DNA of 64,000 nucleotides from a virus (IMGVR_UViG_3300035498_000621:64001-128000); one strand, 5' to 3'; counted from the first letter of the stretch, positions 7,210 to 54,198 are shown. Numbers and translations are program-made. The notes: generated by a model not told the origin, from the sequence alone.

Positions 7210-10200
7210 TTGCAAATTTTCTATAATTGTATTGTACCTTGTCTTAATAACTAATTAATGGCATCTATAGTTTTATCAGTAATATTTCTTAAATTATCAA
7301 CTAGTTTATTAACTGTTTCTGAATAAACTCCTCCAAGAGTGAAATAACTGTTCTAATTATATATTCTAGCTAATGTATCATCTTTTGTTTCGCCATCAAC
7401 TTTAGGAACTATTTCACCAAATGGAACATATCTACCATTTTGTCTAATCATAAGAACTGGTCCATCTTCGGTATTTACTATAATAGTTGGATCTTTCTAT
7501 CCAATTTCAGAATTAACTATAGCAGCAGCTTCTTTCATCAAGTCAATAATACTAATTTGTAAATCTTTTTCTGAACCTTTATAGTCTAAATCTCCAACAA
7601 ATTGTAGATATTTTTTTATGAGTGAAAGTTGTCCAGTATTCTATATAAATGAATCAAATAATGTAGTCATTCTATCTGAACCATATTGATTTTTATTTGT
7701 AATTAAATTATATAAAACAAATATATCAGATAAAGATATACCATTTATTTTAATTTTCTATAATTCCTATAATCCTTTTATATATTTCTAAAATTTAACT
7801 TTACTATTAGGAGAATTTTCAATAGTAAGCATATCTATATCACATTTATATAAAGGCATATCGTGATCATCTCCGTTTATTAAAGACTATATAAATTCAT
7901 TGCTCATTAAAGATTTATCCTCAACTACAATATATTCTTTTTTATTTCCTTTTTTCTAAATATCAATATATTTTCCTTGTTTAAGCATTGGAATTATAGA
8001 ATTTTCAAATAACTATTTAAATGATGCTATATCACTTAAAGAATTAAATTCTATTTCTCCATCTTGTGCAGCTGGAATAACCTATCTTAATTCATTTAAA
8101 AGGCTAGATCCTTTTTTATATGGAATTTTAATATCTAACTGATTTACAAACTTAGCAATAATAGCATTATCTATTGCTTTTAATAGTCTAGTTTGCCATT
8201 CTTTAGACATATATCCAACTTTATATTCACCTTCTTTTAATTCTTTATAAACAACATCAAATTTTTTAGTTTTAATAGAAATATTATGATCAATATCTAG
8301 TACAGCTGAAAAAATTTCAAAAATACTATGAAATTGAGGAATCTAATCTATTATTTCAAAAATATTAATACACAATTTAACTTTATCATATCTATCTATT
8401 ATTTGTTGTTTATATTCTTCATCAGTGAATAATTTTTTAACATCGAGAAGTTCACCTTTAATTCCCATTTTCTCTTCTCTATCACTTAATATTTTTTGTA
8501 TAAATTGAATTCTTTCTTGTAAATCAGCTTTTGAAGTAGGTAATCCTTGATTAAATCCAAGAAGTCGTCCAAAATTACTAAATTCATTTGCTCCTTCAAA
8601 GATATTTTCAAATTCATCTATATCTTGTGGAATACTATTTAAAATTTCTTCTCGAATTTCTTCTTTGTTTCTTTTAGTAGCTTTATATATTGCTTCTACT
8701 TCAGTATCTATTACTGATTCTAATATATATTTAATTTCTTTAATAGCATTTAAAGCATTTTCGAATTCAATAAATTCTTTACTACCTTTTGGAAAAGTAT
8801 TTTCAATTCCTTCAGTAATGCCTTGTTTTAATTTCTTTTTAATTTCAGAAGTATTGTCAAGATTATTAAGTTTAGATAAAGTTCTATTGCTTAAAAATGA
8901 ATAATAATAATCTTTATAGTTACCTCTTGCAATTTTTATTGCATCTTGAATACTAAGATTCTATCCAGTAAATATATTTTGTTCTGTAATTGTATCAATA
9001 AATGATACTATAGGACTAGTCATAAATTTTACAATATCTTTAATATCGAATCCTAAAGTAACCATAAATAAATACATTTTAGCTAATTTATTACCCGCAT
9101 TAACCTTTGCTAATATTAGCTCTTTTGCATTCAATTTTGTTAATCTTATACTTTCATATAAGTTCAGACCATATCTTATTCTTAAATATTTAAGAATCCT
9201 CGCACTTCGGAATTACAATTCCTACTCTACTAAGTTCAGAATAAATTCTGCTTTTCGATGGTCGTTGCTCCTTTTTCCTTTTATAGGAAACTTGGATCAG
9301 GATTGTCCAATCTTTAACCTTATTACCATACCTGAATAATTACTTCAGCCACATAATATATTACTATTTATGCTTGGTAGTTAAAGCTCTAAGGATTTTC
9401 CCTGAGTTCACGAGGTATTTTATCCTACAGACTCTGCTTGTAATACATCTAAGTATTTGAGCTTATAATACATAGATGGCAGCATATATGGAAAAATTAA
9501 TTTTTCAAACTTTAGTCTTGATTCAGATTTAATATATATTTGAAATTGATTTAAATTATGTTGAATAGTACAATTTATTCCCCATTTTTTGATTAACCAC
9601 ATACATAATAGTTCATTTTCTTTCAGAGAAAAACAATGAGTAGCAAATATTCCATTATAAGTTCCATCATCCATAAACCAATATGCTAATGCTATAGGAT
9701 GATGTATTGTATCAAGATATTCTTGAGTTAAAACTTTTTTATTGTTAGGATAAAGTTCATTGTATATTTTAGTAAAAACAGGATGGGATTTACTATTTCC
9801 TCTCCATGACTTATATACTTTTCCTGTTCTAGTATCTAGATTTGATGTGTACAATTTATATGATCCCATAAATTCTCCAAGAATTTCAACTTTCTTAAGA
9901 AATAATTCTTCTTGTTTATTACTATGTACTAATGCAAGTCTAGAATTTGTATGTCTATTAAAAGTAGGGTTAGATAAATTTAAATCCCCTAATAAACTTC
10001 CTCTAATAAATTGGTCTTGAATTTCTGATAGAAATTGCTCAGTTTGAGAAAAATTTCTTATAATATTAAATTTTCCAGCATTTTCTCCTTTAGTTCTATA
10101 AGTTCTTATAGTAAGTTCTTTTACTCCAAAGTATTCTGCAATTTCTTTATCAGATTTACCTTCATTCCAAAGTTTTTCAAAAGTATCTTGATCTATTTGT

Positions 10201-13200
10201 TTTACATATTTTTTCTTTTCAATTCCAAATCTTTCTTTTAAGTATTTACTTACTGTTTGGTTTCCAATACCTAATTCTTTTGCAATTTTTAAATTGCTTA
10301 ATCCTTGATCATAAAGTTCTTTAATTTTCCCAATTGTTTCTTCAGAAATTTTTTTCATAATTGTATAATTTTTATTATATACAAATATAATATTACTTTC
10401 TGAATTAACCAAATAATTATTGCTGCTTACGAAAATCTGTAGCTGCAGAAAGAATTTGAGAAATCATCAAATCCACAGTAATATCTCCTGTTAATCTTGT
10501 ACCATATTTTTCCCTTAATCTAAGATCTATTCCTTCAAAATTAACATCTGGCAATGTATTTATTTCTATTGGTATTATATTTCCAGAAGCTCTACCTCTA
10601 ATTCTAGTTGTTTTAAAACCAAATAATGATTTTTTAACTTTATCAGCATATGGTTTTAAATCCTAAAAAAGTTTCTTTAACTCTGGAATATCACTATACC
10701 GTTTATCTTCTTCTATATCCTTTTGATAATTTTCATTTGTTAAATATTCTAAAACATTTATATATTCATACTATATTTTAGAAACTTTATTAATATTATC
10801 TATTATTGAATTAGATTTCTTCTAAAGAGCAATAACATCAATATTAGTTTTTTGTATAACATCATTTAAATAATAGTGCCACATAAAAGAAGCTTTTTCA
10901 CCATTAGCTGCAATACCAATTACATTTTTACCAGTAATATTTTGATATTGCATTAATAATTTAGTAGCAGGATTAAATAGAGTCATTTTTGAAGATTGTT
11001 CACCTTTAGGACTTGCTTCAGAAGCATCTCTAAATATTTCCATGTCAATAGGAGAATAAGCTCCAATCATATTTCTAAGATTCTAAACTGTATTCTAAAT
11101 ATGTGAAGAAATAAAGTTTTTACTAGCATCTTCTGTTAAACTTTGTGGAACTTGAGTAAATTCATGCATACGTAAATTTGCTAAAACTTCTGCTCCTTCC
11201 TATGTTGTATAATAAATATCTGTAATATTATTATTATTTAAATAATTTATTAATTTAACATATCCTTCTATTCTTTCAACTGCTGTTTTTGCACTAGCAA
11301 TATCTACAACAAAAGAATCAATATTAAATCCATATTCAACTTTATTATAAATTTTTCTTTTTGGCATTGGAAGATATTCAGAAGCCTTTATTGTATCTAT
11401 AGAACTATAATCAAATAAACTACTCCAGCCAACATATTTGCCATTTCCGTCAAATGACAAGCCCATTATGTACGCTTTGTCTATATCGTAATCGCTTCCT
11501 TGTACATTTTGTTATCTTAAGAGCTCTTTATCTCTTAATTCTACAGTTTGTTGTTAGGTTATACTGTAAGTTCAGACTATATCTTCATCTAATCTAAATA
11601 ATTAAGATTAGAGTCGGGCACTCATGGAGAAAATTATTGTTAGGCTCATTTCTCTAGTCGTTGAACCTTCTAAGCTCCTTTATCCTAAGCTTAGCTTGGC
11701 TGCTGATTGTCCACCTCTGGAGTTCCCAGCAATTCACCCGATTTAGACTTGGCAACAAGTACTTGCGATAATAATGTTTCTAAATAATCTTTTTTATATA
11801 AATCTTTATAACATATTACATATAATTGTTTATTATGTTCTTTACACCAATTTACTTTAATATTATCTTTTTCTTGTTGTTCTAATAAAAAAGATTCACC
11901 TCCAAACTTTTCATTAATTTCATAATGTTGTTTGCCTTGTATTTCTATTAATATATCAAATTCTGGCAAATAATAATCAAATCGAAGTTTATCTTTATAA
12001 ACACAATCATCAAATGTCTTTTGTGATTCATATAAAATTCCATATTTATCACAAAATCCAGCAAAATAAGCTTCTAGAGCTGAACTATATTTAGATATTA
12101 ATCCAAATTCAGCATTTAAATCTGGAAGTCTTATTCCATAATAATTAAGTAAACTAGAATTAATATTATAATTTTTTAATATAAGTATTGAAACATATTC
12201 TCTAGTATTTACAATTATATGTTTTATTTTATTTACAATAAATTCTTTTTTATCGGCATTTGAAATTTTACTTATATCTTCATTAAAATCATATTTCAAT
12301 GGTTCTAATACAATATTAGATATATCATCATCTGAAAGATGAGTTTTAACTTTAAGATTTAAATTTAATTCTTTAATATATTTTCTAGCTGTAGTTGGAG
12401 CACATCCAACTTTTTTAGCTACTTCATATGCCGATAAGCAATTTGGAGTAATTTTAATTATATCTTCTTTTAATTTTTTATATTCTTTGTCTCTATTACT
12501 TTCAACATTATATTTATTTAATATATTTTTTATAGTAGTTTGAGATTTATATCCTAATTTTGAACAAATATCTTTAACTGATATACCAGATTGATATAAA
12601 GATATTATTTCTTTTTTATAATCTTCAGCAGTAGGTTTTACATACTTAATATTATATTTTTTCTTATATGTAGTAAGTGTGGTAGTACCTATTCCTAATT
12701 CTGCACAAATATCTGTATTTTTCATTCCAGATTCTACTAATTCTTTTAATTTTGCTATTAATTCGTCAGTAATTTTTGTTGGTGATTTTCTTTTTGTTTC
12801 CATATAAAAATTTTATATAAGTTTAATATTAATAAGCAAATATAATATTTTTATAAATTACTTCCAAATTTGTCAATGGCGATTATTTTATTTTACCAAG
12901 TTTGCCAGTGACTAACAAAACACTGATTAGAAGCAACTCCCGTAAATCCTACATTCCTCATCTGCATAAATGACTGTAAAGTTTGAGCAGGAATACGTGA
13001 TGCGGTAAATTCTTGTGCTTTCTTAAATGATATAAACTATTTATGTGCTAATTTATCTATATATTGTCCTAATATTTTAGATTTCATACGATTACTATAA
13101 GTAACATAACCATCTTCAGCTTTACCAGAATTTACTAAATCTATTAATCCCTTAATTCTGTTTTCGCCATCCTATTTACCTCTAATATATTCAAGCAAAT

Positions 13201-49731: not shown

Positions 49732-50694
49732 TCAATCTTTAGTAGGAATAACTTCCTCCCAAACATCAGCACCTGCTGCGTCTGCGAGTTTCTTAAGAGC
49801 AAGCTCTAAATTAACTTCAGTAGCAAAATCGCCATCTGTAGTAGTATCAAATCCTTCGGCACCATCAATACCAGTTTCAGTTAGAAGTGCATCATTTACA
49901 TAGAATACACTAGTTGTAACAGATTTAACTTGATGTCCTACAGCATTTAGTCCAAGAGGACCACGATTTGTGCAATAGTGAATAGTGAATTGAGTATAAT
50001 GAGCACCAGGAACAGGCATTTCATCCTGTTTAGGAGCAAATGCTTGAGTATGAGCATCTGTAGGAAGTTTAATATTTCTAAGAACCCATCCATAAGTTCC
50101 AAAGCCTTCTTGTCCTTCTTCTACTACATCAACTACACCATCAATTTCTTCCCATGCATTAGCAAATGGTTCTGCACCATCTACATATTTTTCTAATTTA
50201 ACAACATGGAAACGCTGGAATTCAGAAACAGCAGTTAGAACTAATTTAGTTCCACTAACAGTAGCTTTTACTACTTCTTTTTCAAATACTAGCAAACCAT
50301 ACTTTTTAATAACTTTAATAGCATTTTTCAAAGTATCGGTAGCATTTCCAAGCCAAGGAATTTCTACAGTAAATGGACGTCCTTTGAATTGAGTATCATT
50401 TGCATAATAAGAGCTTTGATCAGCTTGAGTAAGACGAATATAAATAGAAAGTCTTAGTGTATCTCCTTTAGTAAGACCTGTAATGGCATTAAAATCAATT
50501 TCTACTTGTGCCAATTTTGGTTCAGTATAAGGTGCTTTATAGATCTTAGTAACATTGGGGGCTTTAAAATTATTTACTCCTTTAATATGAAGAGTAACAT
50601 TGCCATCTTTGTCTTTACCTAATGACCACAATGCTTTATCAGTACTGAAGTCAAAATTACTATTTACTACGTGAGTTGTTGTAAAATTAAACAT
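49732..50694 (-). CDS. structural protein, probably auxiliary capsid protein (320 aa)
   Basis: Uninterrupted, TAG-free ORF; beta-rich with EGFGTYGW motif; lies after the MCP and ring genes and is followed by a terminator. Confidence 0.65.
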   Translation of the reverse strand: MFNFTTTHVVNSNFDFSTDKALWSLGKDKDGNVTLHIKGVNNFKAPNVTKIYKAPYTEPKLAQVEIDFNAITGLTKGDTLRLSIYIRLTQADQSSYYANDTQFKGRPFTVEIPWLGNATDTLKNAIKVIKKYGLLVFEKEVVKATVSGTKLVLTAVSEFQRFHVVKLEKYVDGAEPFANAWEEIDGVVDVVEEGQEGFGTYGWVLRNIKLPTDAHTQAFAPKQDEMPVPGAHYTQFTIHYCTNRGPLGLNAVGHQVKSVTTSVFYVNDALLTETGIDGAEGFDTTTDGDFATEVNLELALKKLADAAGADVWEEVIPTKD

Positions 50695-50706
50695 AATTAA
50701 TTAAAT

Positions 50707-51774
50707 TTATTTACTCGCCTTTGCGGTCGAGGTTGTTTGTGTCTATTGCTGAGTTGGATTTACAATAGACTGTGTAACTGGAATATGTGTCTGTAGTCGT
50801 GGATCAGCTGTGTTTTCCATAACCAAATGTACCAACTCATTTATAATCTCTTGACATACATAATCAGGAAATTCCATGATTTGTGATGTATCCTCTGTAA
50901 GGTCAACTTGTTCTTGTGTAAGTCTAATTGTCTAAGGAGCTTTAATATAATCAATAAATACTCTTTGTAATTCAAATACTGTATTATCTTTTCCGTAACG
51001 TATTTCACATCTAACTTTAGTTGGATTAGCATATCTCAATGCAGCAACTGTAGAATCTTGTAATGATACATCAAAATCATCACCATCACGATTCATAAGT
51101 GTAACTGTTCTCGGATATTCTGATTGACCAAGAACATCACCATCATTAGTATATGCCTAATCAGTACCAACATTATTAGTATATTTATTATCGGTATTAT
51201 TTTTATTATCTAATAAATAAGTAGTTTCTTGATATTCATTAGTTGGAAGATCAGACTACTAATTTATATTATGAATATAATAATAAGGACGTTCAGGAAG
51301 AGGTCTATTATAATAATCATTAACTATTATAGACCATGTATCAGCAGTTAAACGTTTAGCAGCAAACTAAACATAATCATCTTTATTATAGCATTTATAA
51401 TTCTTTTTTAATTTATAAATACATATACAATTCAACATATGTAAATAATCATCAGGTAAATTAACTTCATATGTTGCTCCAAATAATTTAGCATTACCAG
51501 CGCCCCATTTATCAATATTATTATTAGAAATTGCTGTATAATGATTTAAAATTGTGTCAACAGAAGTTTGTGTAACTGGCAATATAGTTGTTGCTTTTAA
51601 TACCCTGAGATCATCAGTAGTTTGCTGATTAATATCATAGATATTATAACGTTTATTTATATATTGATTAATAGCTTTATTGAAAAAATAATTAAAATCC
51701 TACAGAAGCATGCTAGGAGCATTAACTTTACTTAATTCAGTTAATAACCCTTCAAAAACTTGTCTAGCGGTCAC
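50707..51774 (-). CDS. conserved crAss-like ring/neck protein (355 aa, GTG start, code 15)
   Basis: MTARQVFEGLLTELSKVNAPSMLLQDFNYFFNKAINQY...QTTDDLRVL...DYIKAPQ...EFPDYVCQEIINELV. Confidence 0.75.
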
Positions 51775-51814
51775 GTTATAATAATTTTTCTTTTATAATT
51801 ATATTATCTAGTCA

Positions 51815-52678
51815 TTATTCAACAGTTTCTGTAACCGAATAATCTGGATAAGTATCTTTTTCTATTTGTTCGACTAATTTTTTATTTTTTGGGTCTTTCA
51901 TCCAAGCTACTACTGCATCATCGGTTGAACCTAGAATAACATCTCCGAAATAATAAATTCCTTTTTTAAGAGTAATTACATATTTCTTTTTAGCATTAAT
52001 AAATAGAATACGAGTAGTAGTATCTCCTCCAGTATATAGACTAATAATTTTGTCTGGATCCTTTTCTGCTGTTCTAATCAAAAAATCAATAACATCATTA
52101 ATATTTTGATTAAACATATCTTTACCAAGAATCAAAGCCATATTTCTTTGTCCTTCTGCTCCACGTTCATCATCATAAATATAACTCATAGCTCTATGTT
52201 GCAATTGCTTTCTAGAAACTCTACGAGCGGCATCAAGACCAGGACGATCAATATAAAGTTCTGCAACGCCATTACGACCAGGATTATTACTTTTTGGTTT
52301 AATGCCATCAATAATAAAATTACCTTTACTATCACGAGCATCACGACTTTTTGCAATTAACTTACAATTTTTAATACATTCCCATTCGGCTTTATCATAT
52401 GGATTTGTTAAATCATATTTTTTACCAGACATAACAACAAACATATGATCTTCTGGAAAAAATACAGCTCTACCTTCTGCATAGTCATTTCTTTCTCGTT
52501 CACTCATAATCATTTCACCAGAAGGATTAACTTTTTTTACACAAGGTGGAAATAGTCCAGTTTTAGGATCTCTACATGGTTGTATATAATATTTCATAGT
52601 TGAAACTTTATCATATACACTTCTTAAAATAATTACATCGTCTCTATAAACATTTTCAGATTTAGTTGTCTTTCCCAT
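51815..52678 (-). CDS. conserved crAss-like structural protein downstream of MCP (287 aa)
   Basis: Uninterrupted ORF; YDLTNPYDKAEW and KDPKNKKL motifs; canonical position next to the MCP. Confidence 0.75.
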   Translation of the reverse strand: MGKTTKSENVYRDDVIILRSVYDKVSTMKYYIQPCRDPKTGLFPPCVKKVNPSGEMIMSERERNDYAEGRAVFFPEDHMFVVMSGKKYDLTNPYDKAEWECIKNCKLIAKSRDARDSKGNFIIDGIKPKSNNPGRNGVAELYIDRPGLDAARRVSRKQLQHRAMSYIYDDERGAEGQRNMALILGKDMFNQNINDVIDFLIRTAEKDPDKIISLYTGGDTTTRILFINAKKKYVITLKKGIYYFGDVILGSTDDAVVAWMKDPKNKKLVEQIEKDTYPDYSVTETVE

Positions 52679-52706
52679 ATTAGTTCATATTATCATAAAA
52701 AATTTA

Positions 52707-52736
52707 ATAAGGGGAGGGTTTTACGGCTCCCCTTAT
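52707..52736 (-). terminator. hairpin/terminator after the major capsid gene
   Basis: ATAAGGGGAG-N10-CTCCCCTTAT; the U-tract is interrupted (TAAATTTTTT), so possibly leaky or mRNA-stabilising. Confidence 0.65.
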
Positions 52737-52770
52737 CTAATCTGCATCAACTTATTATTTTTAATTTTTA

Positions 52771-54198
52771 TTAGGCTTCCATAATGATAAAGCTGCGGAA
52801 TGGAGCAAATACAGCTACACCAGCAGTTGACATCATTACCATCTTAGAACCTGCAACATTAGTAGAAACATTACCACTAGATTTACCGTCTTCTCCTTGA
52901 ACACCGATAATCTTATTAGTAGTAAATTCTTTACCAGTTAAAGTAAATTTACCAATAGCAGGAACATTATTAGTTTTATCTCCAGTAAGATCAAGGCATA
53001 GAGCATAACCTTTATTGCCATATTCACGAGTCAAAGCTTTATCAGGAATAAAAGTAATAGTATTACCTCCCATTTCATAGCTATTGAAAGTAGCGCCAAC
53101 TTTAATGTAGCCACCTTCGCCTTTATTAGCACTCTTAGAATAGAAACAAGTATTATCAGTCTTAAGAGCCATTAGATACTGACCAAGAGTAGATTGAATA
53201 TCATTCCAGAATTTTTGTGTGCAAATAACAGTATAATGATTACCAGTAAGTTCTTGAGATTTTTCTGCCATTTCAGCAAATACTCTATTAAGAAGAGATA
53301 CTGTAATTTTGTTATTATAAACATATTTAGAAGCAAATGCTTCAACTTGAGGAATAACACCATCGCCAATTACAATTTGACGACTAGTATCAGGATCGCT
53401 AATGGTAGCGCGCATGTTAACGTCTACATTACCTTTATTACACAACAAACCTGTGTTCATTCCATACATGAACGATTCCATCAATTCCTTTTCTTTCTTA
53501 AGCATCTTAAAGACACCTTCTGATTTAGAAGCATCTTTATTATCAGAAATAGAAAGGAACATATTTTCTTGAGCAGCATATAAAGAAGACCAAGAAATAT
53601 CAGCACGGAAAGTAGTCATAGCGTTTCTATGTTTTTCCCAGCTTGACATAAATTTACTATAACCTTCTTCAGACAATTCAGGCACTGCCATAGATTTCCA
53701 AGTAGTAGTCATTCCAGGTTCACAAGCTTCATCATCAAGAATAGATGAATAATCATTATCAATAAGTCTAACTTGTACTTCCCAGTAATCATCACGCTTA
53801 CGAATTGGATGACTTAATACTTGACATTGCTGTCTGCTACCATCAATCATGAAAATATCATATTTTTGATAGTAATTTTCTTTAAATGCCATAGTAATTT
53901 CATTGCCATTTTCACCAAGTTCAGTTGGTTTTTCAGCAAATTCAATTTTCTTAACTTCACCATTATCAATTTCCCATTCATAGAATAGAGAATTAATTGT
54001 TTGATATTTACCAACGTTAGCATCATTATAAAAAATGTTTCTCAAACCATCAGTAATGAAGTTAATAGTATTTTGAGAGTAGAGACGAGCTACTACACCA
54101 AAACGATATGGTTTAGCACCAAGATAAGTAGACCAATCTTCATAGGTCTTAGTGTTTCCCATTGTAGGGATCTTAGATGTAAAATTCGCAACTAACAT
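52771..54198 (-). CDS. major capsid protein, crAss-like (475 aa)
   Basis: Size, codon usage distinct from neighbours, motifs YEWEI, IGDGVIPQ, GATFNSYE..GNTITF, C-terminal GVAVFAPFRS; flanked by scaffold gene and hairpin. Confidence 0.88.
   Translation of the reverse strand: MLVANFTSKIPTMGNTKTYEDWSTYLGAKPYRFGVVARLYSQNTINFITDGLRNIFYNDANVGKYQTINSLFYEWEIDNGEVKKIEFAEKPTELGENGNEITMAFKENYYQKYDIFMIDGSRQQCQVLSHPIRKRDDYWEVQVRLIDNDYSSILDDEACEPGMTTTWKSMAVPELSEEGYSKFMSSWEKHRNAMTTFRADISWSSLYAAQENMFLSISDNKDASKSEGVFKMLKKEKELMESFMYGMNTGLLCNKGNVDVNMRATISDPDTSRQIVIGDGVIPQVEAFASKYVYNNKITVSLLNRVFAEMAEKSQELTGNHYTVICTQKFWNDIQSTLGQYLMALKTDNTCFYSKSANKGEGGYIKVGATFNSYEMGGNTITFIPDKALTREYGNKGYALCLDLTGDKTNNVPAIGKFTLTGKEFTTNKIIGVQGEDGKSSGNVSTNVAGSKMVMMSTAGVAVFAPFRSFIIMEA

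Follow-up and report, generated by a model that had tools for sequence, protein, structure and literature searches.

The window analysed here is a 64-kb stretch comprising bases 64001-128000 of the 161-kb IMG/VR phage record IMGVR_UViG_3300035498_000621 (positions are counted from the window start), and its minus strand carries an RNA polymerase (RNAP) gene interrupted by two group I introns. The phage is a crAss-like phage from the gut in which TAG is recoded as glutamine. Under translation table 11, the window yields few long open reading frames (ORFs), and reading TAG as Gln joins ORFs into a minus-strand late block of giant genes. Within L1, the loop of helix P1, each intron holds a homing endonuclease gene preceded by a promoter motif. 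We consider it probable that these are two mobile group I introns whose L1 endonuclease cassettes run on their own host-type promoters, giving separate expression of the nuclease in the manner of phage T4.

The sequence features of the genome fit the Zeta-like crAss phages. Genomes of the Zeta/Delta crAss-like phages are 145-192 kb in size and have recoded stop codons in late genes as well as numerous group I introns; their RNAP ORFs are interrupted inside the DxDxD motif, and their transcription block includes a LAGLIDADG endonuclease (Yutin et al. 2021, PMC7886860). The phage shares this genome size class, late-gene recoding, group I introns, a DxDxD-disrupted RNAP, and a LAGLIDADG endonuclease. 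In that study, introns were found via protein domains; splice sites, L1 placement, promoters, guide/ORF overlap, and hairpins were not analysed there.

To place the exons, we compared them with five relatives at ~49% identity (L001-L005). Four of these (L002-L005) are intron-less at both junctions and read straight through (..HWQTW-L-QGSDYDIDKAY.. and ..LSAATD-NAKELILAK..), which fixes the boundaries: exon 1 ends at 12895, intron 1 spans 12894-11505, exon 2 11504-10435, and intron 2 10434-9132, with exon 3 starting at 9131. Excision of both introns restores the host reading frame exactly, the last intron base being a G (omega-G) in each case (11505 and 9132), and the spliced exons form a single 3317-aa ORF under TAG=Q with no TAA or TGA. 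The exon-1 frame ends in a TAA spanning the 5' splice site, and the exon-2 frame stops six codons inside intron 2; an exon-frame stop at or soon after the 5' splice site is usual in bacterial and phage introns (PMC3073962). Searches of the host-gene exons against Pfam, PHROGs, and PDB sequences gave no match, nor did a phmmer comparison of the product with p-crAssphage gp44. Because sequence searches gave nothing, the gene was identified as RNAP from its GSD[FY]D[IV]D motif, synteny, and PMC7886860; GSDYDID in the window resembles GSDFDVD of p-crAssphage gp44, the annotated RNAP catalytic subunit. An endonuclease-free split gene and inteins were both ruled out by the ribozyme cores and the exact RNA-level junctions.

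The cores confirm, at the level of sequence, that both elements are group I introns, and self-splicing is predicted for each. When ~300-nt core regions were scanned, the Rfam model RF00028 matched intron 1 at 11785..11559 (76.8 bits, E 4.7e-20, against a gathering score of 50) and intron 2 at 9452..9145 (48.4 bits, E 1.7e-11, 1.6 under the gathering score). Whole-window Rfam scans at gathering and E-value thresholds found neither intron, the misses being due to speed filters. As both were detected from core-only input, the intron content of such phages is likely under-reported, and introns invisible to a standard whole-contig Rfam scan would contribute to the poor annotation of Zeta-like crAss genomes. 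By blastn, core 1 matched introns of Flavobacterium FpV phages, cyanophage psbA, and the p-crAssphage dUTPase gene, and core 2 matched the AR9 RNAP-beta intron, phiCD211 'Intron_gpI', and Staphylococcus, Vibrio, and Aeromonas phages. Compensatory changes relative to such sequences were seen in P3, P4, P5, P6, P7, P7.1, P8, and P9 (helices read by eye), for intron 2 against L013, L001, and L023. Between P7 and P3' lies a P7.1/P7.2 insertion, which suggests an IA-like core, assigned to subgroup IA by inspection.

The P1 helices are perfect in both introns, 7 and 8 bp long with U.G at the splice site, as the original prediction had stated. Its placement of the endonuclease genes in L1, with the guide 1.0-1.15 kb downstream of the 5' splice site, was also borne out, the measured distances being 1141 and 1002 nt. 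Two lines of evidence carry this placement. First, short-L1 relatives have the guide at the homologous spot, directly 5' of conserved J1/3-P3 (FpV21 and S-RSM88 psbA for intron 1; AR9, L001, and L023 for intron 2). The intron 1 guide abuts the conserved (C/U)UAAAU..GGGUGAAUUGCUGG on its 5' side, a position homologous to that of the guides in FpV21, S-RSM88 psbA, and p-crAssphage. Second, P1 covaries over ~1 kb: in ten loci whose LSAATD| site is likewise occupied by the intron with endonuclease 2, exon end and guide lie 995-1179 nt apart and change together, giving nine P1 variants (for example, CUACUGAU/GUCAGUAG, CACCGAU/GUCGGUG, and AACGGAU/GUCCGUU). A homing endonuclease can, it appears, persist for long in a P1 loop, with P1 closing over ~1 kb. 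Any long-range closing helix beyond P1 was weak in both introns (z -2.3 and -1.2).

The variable P1 positions of intron 2 are third bases of the exon codons GCN ACN, paired with third bases of the endonuclease Ser-Val codons UCN GUN. This wobble-to-wobble register (window 9423-9434 and 10435-10443) was seen in six variants, so a synonymous change on one coding strand can be matched synonymously on the other. In the homologous intron of L013 (1390-1400, 2396-2402), and also in L014-L017, the 5' splice site pair is C-G rather than the canonical U.G (GACCGAC/GUCGGUC).

The two endonucleases belong to different families. Endonuclease 1 matched HTH_28, HTH_23, HTH_7, phrog_9084 ('homing endonuclease', 1e-18), and phrog_559 (2e-21), and is similar to a Staphylococcus phage intron-encoded protein. 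In endonuclease 2, residues 116-284 form a LAGLIDADG_2 domain (Pfam PF03161, E 6.8e-33), and its family has 314 homologues. The guides were originally placed within the last codons of both ORFs. This stands for ORF 2 (stop 9422-9420), where the guide lies within the last four codons and the ORF ends 2 nt past it. In ORF 1 (stop 11693-11691), the guide is instead ~20 codons ahead of the stop, and the ORF runs 54 nt past it, through P3, P4, P5, and the Q element, so that the overlap of the last ~21 codons reaches P6. This terminus (..EVDNQQPS*) is retained in L024, and CPQ4 retains ..NQQPS*. The anticipated conflict between translation and splicing follows from these coordinates and has a T4 precedent (PMC2988022, PMC3073962).

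The endonuclease genes also differ from their host gene in code usage. There are 55 in-frame TAG codons in ~3290 RNAP exon codons versus none in 682 endonuclease codons (P ~1e-5 by our arithmetic), and the L024 endonuclease is likewise TAG-free within a TAG-using gene. In the TGA-recoded L013-L017, L031, and L033, the homologous endonuclease has three to four in-frame TGA at Trp positions. Endonucleases of recoded phages thus seem to follow two strategies, being either code-neutral with their own promoter or recoded together with the host gene. TAG avoidance is not unique to them, since the gene for the major capsid (Crass_capsid, 4.4e-15), together with two ORFs beside it at 49732-54198 on the minus strand, also lacks TAG although the late block around it is rich in TAG. 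A tRNA scan of the 64-kb window found none, which places the suppressor elsewhere.

Bacteroidota housekeeping promoters have the consensus -33 TTTG and -7 TAnnTTTG, spaced by 19-21 nt, and lie upstream of genes. At motif level, the consensus promoter that had been predicted in each L1 is present in both introns as TTTG-N20-TATATTTG. The window has four matches to TTTG-N19-21-TAnnTTTG versus 2.2 expected, a count that is not significant, though the positions are. Across the whole genome, we counted 16 matches versus five for the reversed control. Seven of the 16 end 10-60 nt upstream of an ORF start, a class that covers 4.4% of positions (estimated binomial probability ~3e-6) and to which both intron motifs belong. 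Among relatives, L024 has TTTG-N19-TAATTTTG upstream of a 58%-identical endonuclease-1 homologue, and in L027, L028, L030, and L032 the motif lies 23-38 nt ahead of the ATG of endonuclease-2 homologues (61-91% identity). L031 and L033 have a CTTG variant at -33, and L013-L017 a degenerate copy. A sigma-70 scan was uninformative in such A+T-rich DNA (59 found versus 56.7 expected). Because the L1 motifs are conserved in relatives, tied to gene starts, and paired with TAG-free ORFs, they are very likely functional.

The predicted starts, ~12830 and ~10375, fall 3' of the 5' splice sites, and in silico transcripts from them would leave out the 5' exon but include the guide together with the entire core and the 3' exon, as had been proposed. 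Termination ahead of the core was looked for, and no terminator-like site was found on the minus strand from 14000 to 7000. With a promoter motif in each L1 and no terminator-like site downstream, 5'-exon-less transcripts carrying a complete ribozyme are likely. A naturally fragmented (trans-spliced) organelle-type intron was also considered and does not fit, the gene being contiguous and neither L1 nor the same minus-strand interval having a terminator-like site.

In intron 2, the start region of the endonuclease gene is predicted to pair with the sequence just upstream of the predicted start site. The hairpin duplex has an energy of -20.2 kcal/mol (z -5.2), reached by none of 300 dinucleotide shuffles, and the same hairpin was found in five relatives of intron 2 (z -6.2, -4.0, -3.3, -4.5, and -3.8). 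A matrix of cognate versus non-cognate arms showed two to three covarying groups, in which differing N-terminal codons go with differing, matching 5' arms. A transcript from ~10375 would not include any of the 5' arm, and its start region is predicted to be more open (openness 0.70, up from 0.40). As the 5' arm ends a few nt short of the predicted start, the arrangement is sensible only if that start site is used. The intron-1-type relative L024 gave z -2.6 in the start-codon hairpin test. In the p-crAssphage dUTPase intron, no start-codon hairpin was detected (z -0.7).

Table 1. Features of the interrupted RNAP gene and its introns (window coordinates unless a locus is named)
Feature	Position	Strand	Remarks and basis
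Promoter motif TTTG-N20-TATATTTG, L1 of intron 1	12837..12868	-	33 nt ahead of ATG; predicted start ~12830
Promoter motif TTTG-N20-TATATTTG, L1 of intron 2	10382..10413	-	23 nt ahead of ATG; predicted start ~10375
Exon 2, RNA polymerase gene	10435..11504	-	Starts with QGSDYDID codons, the DxDxD catalytic motif; comparison with relatives
Group I intron 1, 1390 nt	11505..12894	-	omega-G at 11505 (..ACAAAAUG); RF00028; aligned with FpV21, S-RSM88 psbA, and p-crAssphage dUTPase introns
Group I intron 2, 1303 nt	9132..10434	-	omega-G at 9132 (..ACAAAAUUG); RF00028; similar to AR9 RNAP-beta intron and phiCD211 'Intron_gpI'
P1 5' strand, intron 1 (ACUUGGU, exon 1 end)	12895..12901	-	Junction HWQTW|L|QGSDYDID agrees with intron-less L002-L005
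Guide, intron 1 (GCCAAGU)	11747..11753	-	1141 nt past 5' splice site; pairs with ACUUGGU
P1 5' strand, intron 2 (CUACAGAU, exon 2 end)	10435..10442	-	Pairs with GUCUGUAG; relatives' junctions and P1 covariation
Guide, intron 2 (GUCUGUAG)	9425..9432	-	1002 nt past 5' splice site; nine covarying P1 variants
Catalytic core, intron 1	11505..11746	-	P3, P4, P5, P6, P7, P7.1, P8, P9, P9.1; R element GUUCAACGACUA, S element AAGAUAUAGUC; covariance-model alignment
Catalytic core, intron 2	9132..9424	-	P3 CCUCG/CGAGG, P4 UCAGG/CCUGA, P7 GACCAU/AUGGUC, P7.1, P7.2, P8, P9; RF00028 alignment
Homing endonuclease 1, 370 aa	11691..12803	-	Three helix-turn-helix (HTH) modules and C-terminal phage homing-endonuclease domain; no in-frame TAG
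Homing endonuclease 2, 312 aa	9420..10358	-	N-terminal HTH modules and LAGLIDADG_2; no in-frame TAG
Hairpin 5' arm, intron 2	10377..10410	-	Pairs with endonuclease-2 start region; wholly upstream of predicted start site
Hairpin 3' arm, intron 2	10335..10368	-	Spans AUG (10358-10356) and codons 2-8
Loci of DxDxD insertion sites	window 11480-12900; L001:3930-4990; L022:1460-1620; L023:1440-1760		

Taken as a mechanism, our favoured explanation would work as follows. The introns reside in the catalytic RNAP gene, one adjoining the DxDxD codons and the other at the conserved LSAATD|NAKEL site, and each would have acquired in its P1 loop a self-contained cassette comprising a host-type promoter, a short A/U leader, and a stop-codon-neutral ORF. 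Two RNA populations would then arise. The first would be a long precursor from the upstream gene promoter, which splices; exon ribosomes on it would stop at or just past the 5' splice site, and in intron 2 the endonuclease start codon would be sequestered, so that ribosomes stay off the guide and core. The second would be made by host RNA polymerase starting at ~12830 or ~10375, yielding an endonuclease mRNA with no 5' exon and, for intron 2, with no hairpin 5' arm. Such an mRNA would be translatable without a TAG suppressor and incapable of cis-splicing. In homing, the endonuclease would cut RNAP alleles that lack the intron in co-infecting phages. That the second RNA holds a complete ribozyme would be a by-product of the L1 location; at most, this ribozyme would trim or stabilise the 3' end through 3'-splice-site hydrolysis. 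For intron 2, the hairpin is an ordinary reason for the promoter and a sufficient one, since promoter use would yield an endonuclease mRNA that can be translated and is separate from the precursor that splices. Provided that the promoters fire, RNAs joining an endonuclease message to a complete exon-less ribozyme would be a routine product of crAss-like phages, which is absent from the T4 paradigm.

Several observations weigh against this explanation. In intron 1, the start-codon hairpin is missing (z +0.3), and the case for two populations is therefore documented only by half. The promoter motif was not found in the L029 and L034 introns, though their endonucleases are TAG-free, and the TGA-recoded L031 and L033 keep a near-consensus motif; the link between promoter and code is therefore a tendency and not a rule. 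The promoters and start sites are motif-level predictions. Finally, the timing of transcription by host RNAP bears on this reading: in phi14:2, early genes are read by the virion polymerase (as cited in PMC7886860).

The closest precedent is found in T4, where I-TevI/II/III have promoters within their introns, the hairpin forms only on read-through transcripts, and hairpin loss impairs splicing (PMC2988022, PMC3073962). A start-hiding hairpin with a promoter that excludes one of its arms is experimental for I-TevI and proposed for I-TevII as well as I-TevIII (PMC2988022). Like the T4 td, nrdD, and nrdB introns, those described here are group I introns in an essential phage gene, with an endonuclease predicted to be under its own intron promoter. 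In intron 2, as in the T4 introns, structure is predicted to hide the start region only on read-through RNA, promoter transcripts being without the inhibitory arm. The ORF's 3' terminus overlaps core helices in both systems, and in T4 ribosome entry impairs splicing (PMC2988022, PMC3073962). There are also differences. T4 ORFs lie in P6 or P9-region loops, so that promoter RNAs have a partial ribozyme, whereas the L1 position gives an entire one; the promoter here is of host Bacteroidota type, in place of the T4 middle or late types; a Shine-Dalgarno sequence is missing; and TAG recoding affects the host gene but not the endonuclease. In Bacteroidota phages that have no Shine-Dalgarno sequences, the T4 device of hiding the start codon in a hairpin that also contains a promoter would have evolved a second time.

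Insertion of the ORF in the P1 loop is shared with the Synechocystis tRNA-fMet intron (I-Ssp6803I) and Physarum Ppo.L1925 (I-PpoI). In the Synechocystis intron, 61 nt of the ORF overlap P1/P2 (PMC3073962, Table 1). Those introns are in tRNA or rRNA genes and are expressed off the host gene transcript, Table 1 of PMC3073962 giving no internal promoter. In contrast, the present cassettes have a predicted promoter of their own, the host is a protein-coding phage gene, and the overlap extends up to P6 in intron 1. Another similar element is the dUTPase intron of prototype crAssphage (Carjivirus communis BK010471), which has the HNH gene KP06_gp35 in L1, the guide GUAGUCU inside the ORF, TTTG-N18-TATATTTG upstream of the HNH ATG, and a core related to intron 1. 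It differs in host gene and endonuclease family. The BK010471 record annotates only 'contains intron insertion', and we did not find the RNA architecture described in searchable literature. In this intron (L008:1241-2256), the HNH ORF runs through the entire core to the S element, an overlap of ~186 nt, and the junction was read as GTLDY|GYRGEL, a dUTPase motif.

The strongest alternative is that the L1 motifs are inactive relics of once free-standing cassettes, with translation of the endonuclease confined to the late precursor or, as for I-PpoI, to the linear intron after excision. We regard this as unlikely. It would account for the persistence of homologous introns with no motif (L029, L034) or a degenerate one (L013-L017) and for a motif count in the window that is not above chance, and an excised intron would hold the whole ORF with the guide freed. 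Against this, neither the exact consensus and spacing nor the ATG offset changes over 58-91% endonuclease identity, and the same holds across three endonuclease families that are unrelated. Over the whole genome, the motif is tied to gene starts, and the hairpin 5' arm ends a few nt ahead of the predicted start site, a position that is sensible only if that site is used.

A slightly less probable alternative, compatible with our favoured explanation, is that the endonuclease mRNA is a cis substrate of its ribozyme, with hydrolysis at the 3' splice site removing the downstream exons and a compact structured 3' end stabilising the message. Hydrolysis at the 3' splice site with no prior 5' cleavage is a known side reaction of group I introns (the full-length-circle pathway), and here the stop codon is immediately followed or overlapped by a complete core, with no terminator after it. 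Ribosomes finishing ORF 1 would, however, unfold P3-P6, setting folding and translation in competition, and T4-type introns manage with no such trimming.

The original prediction went further, proposing that the promoter-initiated 5'-exon-less RNAs act as trans ribozymes that splice or cleave the RNAP mRNA of the same phage or of an intron-less competitor. The engineered trans-splicing group I ribozyme design was reportedly described by Sullenger and Cech in 1994. The predicted transcripts share its layout (reviewed in PMC6155759): the 5' exon is missing, the guide is free, and the entire core and the 3' exon come after it. In the engineered RNAs, the guide is at or close to the 5' end, and efficiency and specificity usually depend on extending it (PMC6155759), whereas here, in a layout predicted in silico, ~1 kb of translated ORF precedes a 7-8-nt guide. 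A trans reaction would be the first natural counterpart of that design, and some features accommodate it: no terminator would separate guide, core, and 3' exon; the cis P1 must already bridge 1.0-1.15 kb, so the ribozyme tolerates a distant 5' strand; and the combination of an L1 location with a promoter is found for three endonuclease families in crAss-like phages. We found no support for trans action itself and consider it highly improbable, since the unextended guides have 12 (ACTTGGT) and 15 (CTACAGAT) perfect complements in the 161-kb genome and so no specificity, no significant long-range pairing extends beyond P1, trans-splicing onto the phage's own exon 1 or 2 would give the same product as cis-splicing, the ~10 uM effective concentration of a 1-kb tether (a rough polymer estimate) would favour cis at realistic transcript numbers, the intron-2 hairpin gives the promoter an ordinary role, and relatives with no motif retain the same intron. 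The broader proposal that L1 promoters yield natural trans-reacting ribozymes, whether tagging or cleaving competitors' RNAP transcripts or rescuing 5' exon RNAs, is just as implausible. Cryptic cis 5' splice sites were also sought within the L1 transcripts, with no 6-mer match.

Beyond the two introns, the DxDxD region of the RNAP gene carries further insertions. At L024:1497-3170 (NFYZ01000001.1), an intron-1-type intron occupies the same site, and a second group I intron lies 14 nt downstream; the micro-exon between them, TATAGGGATCGGAT, encodes (L)QGSD of the DxDxD region. At least three insertion sites fall within ~20 nt at the DxDxD codons: W|L (window and L024), GSD| (cr131_1 and the second L024 intron), and GSDY| (L001 and MT835470). 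The catalytic motif thus looks like an intron insertion hot spot.

Both homing sites bear a weak resemblance to the promoter regions of their introns, reminiscent of the autorepression operator of I-TevI but marginal against shuffled sequences in either intron. For intron 1, the homing site and the -33 box region (12864-12878) are identical at 12 of 15 positions, a value reached by 52 of 500 shuffles. For intron 2, the gapped match to the promoter spacer (10388-10408) is 20/22, reached by 11 of 500 shuffles. Outside the window, at C1:145893-147201 in the genome, a TAG-free 300-aa minus-strand ORF lies downstream of a consensus promoter motif (147201-147171) that is directly followed by the S-element-like 9-mer GATATAGTC; this ORF could be a free-standing endonuclease or an intron remnant.

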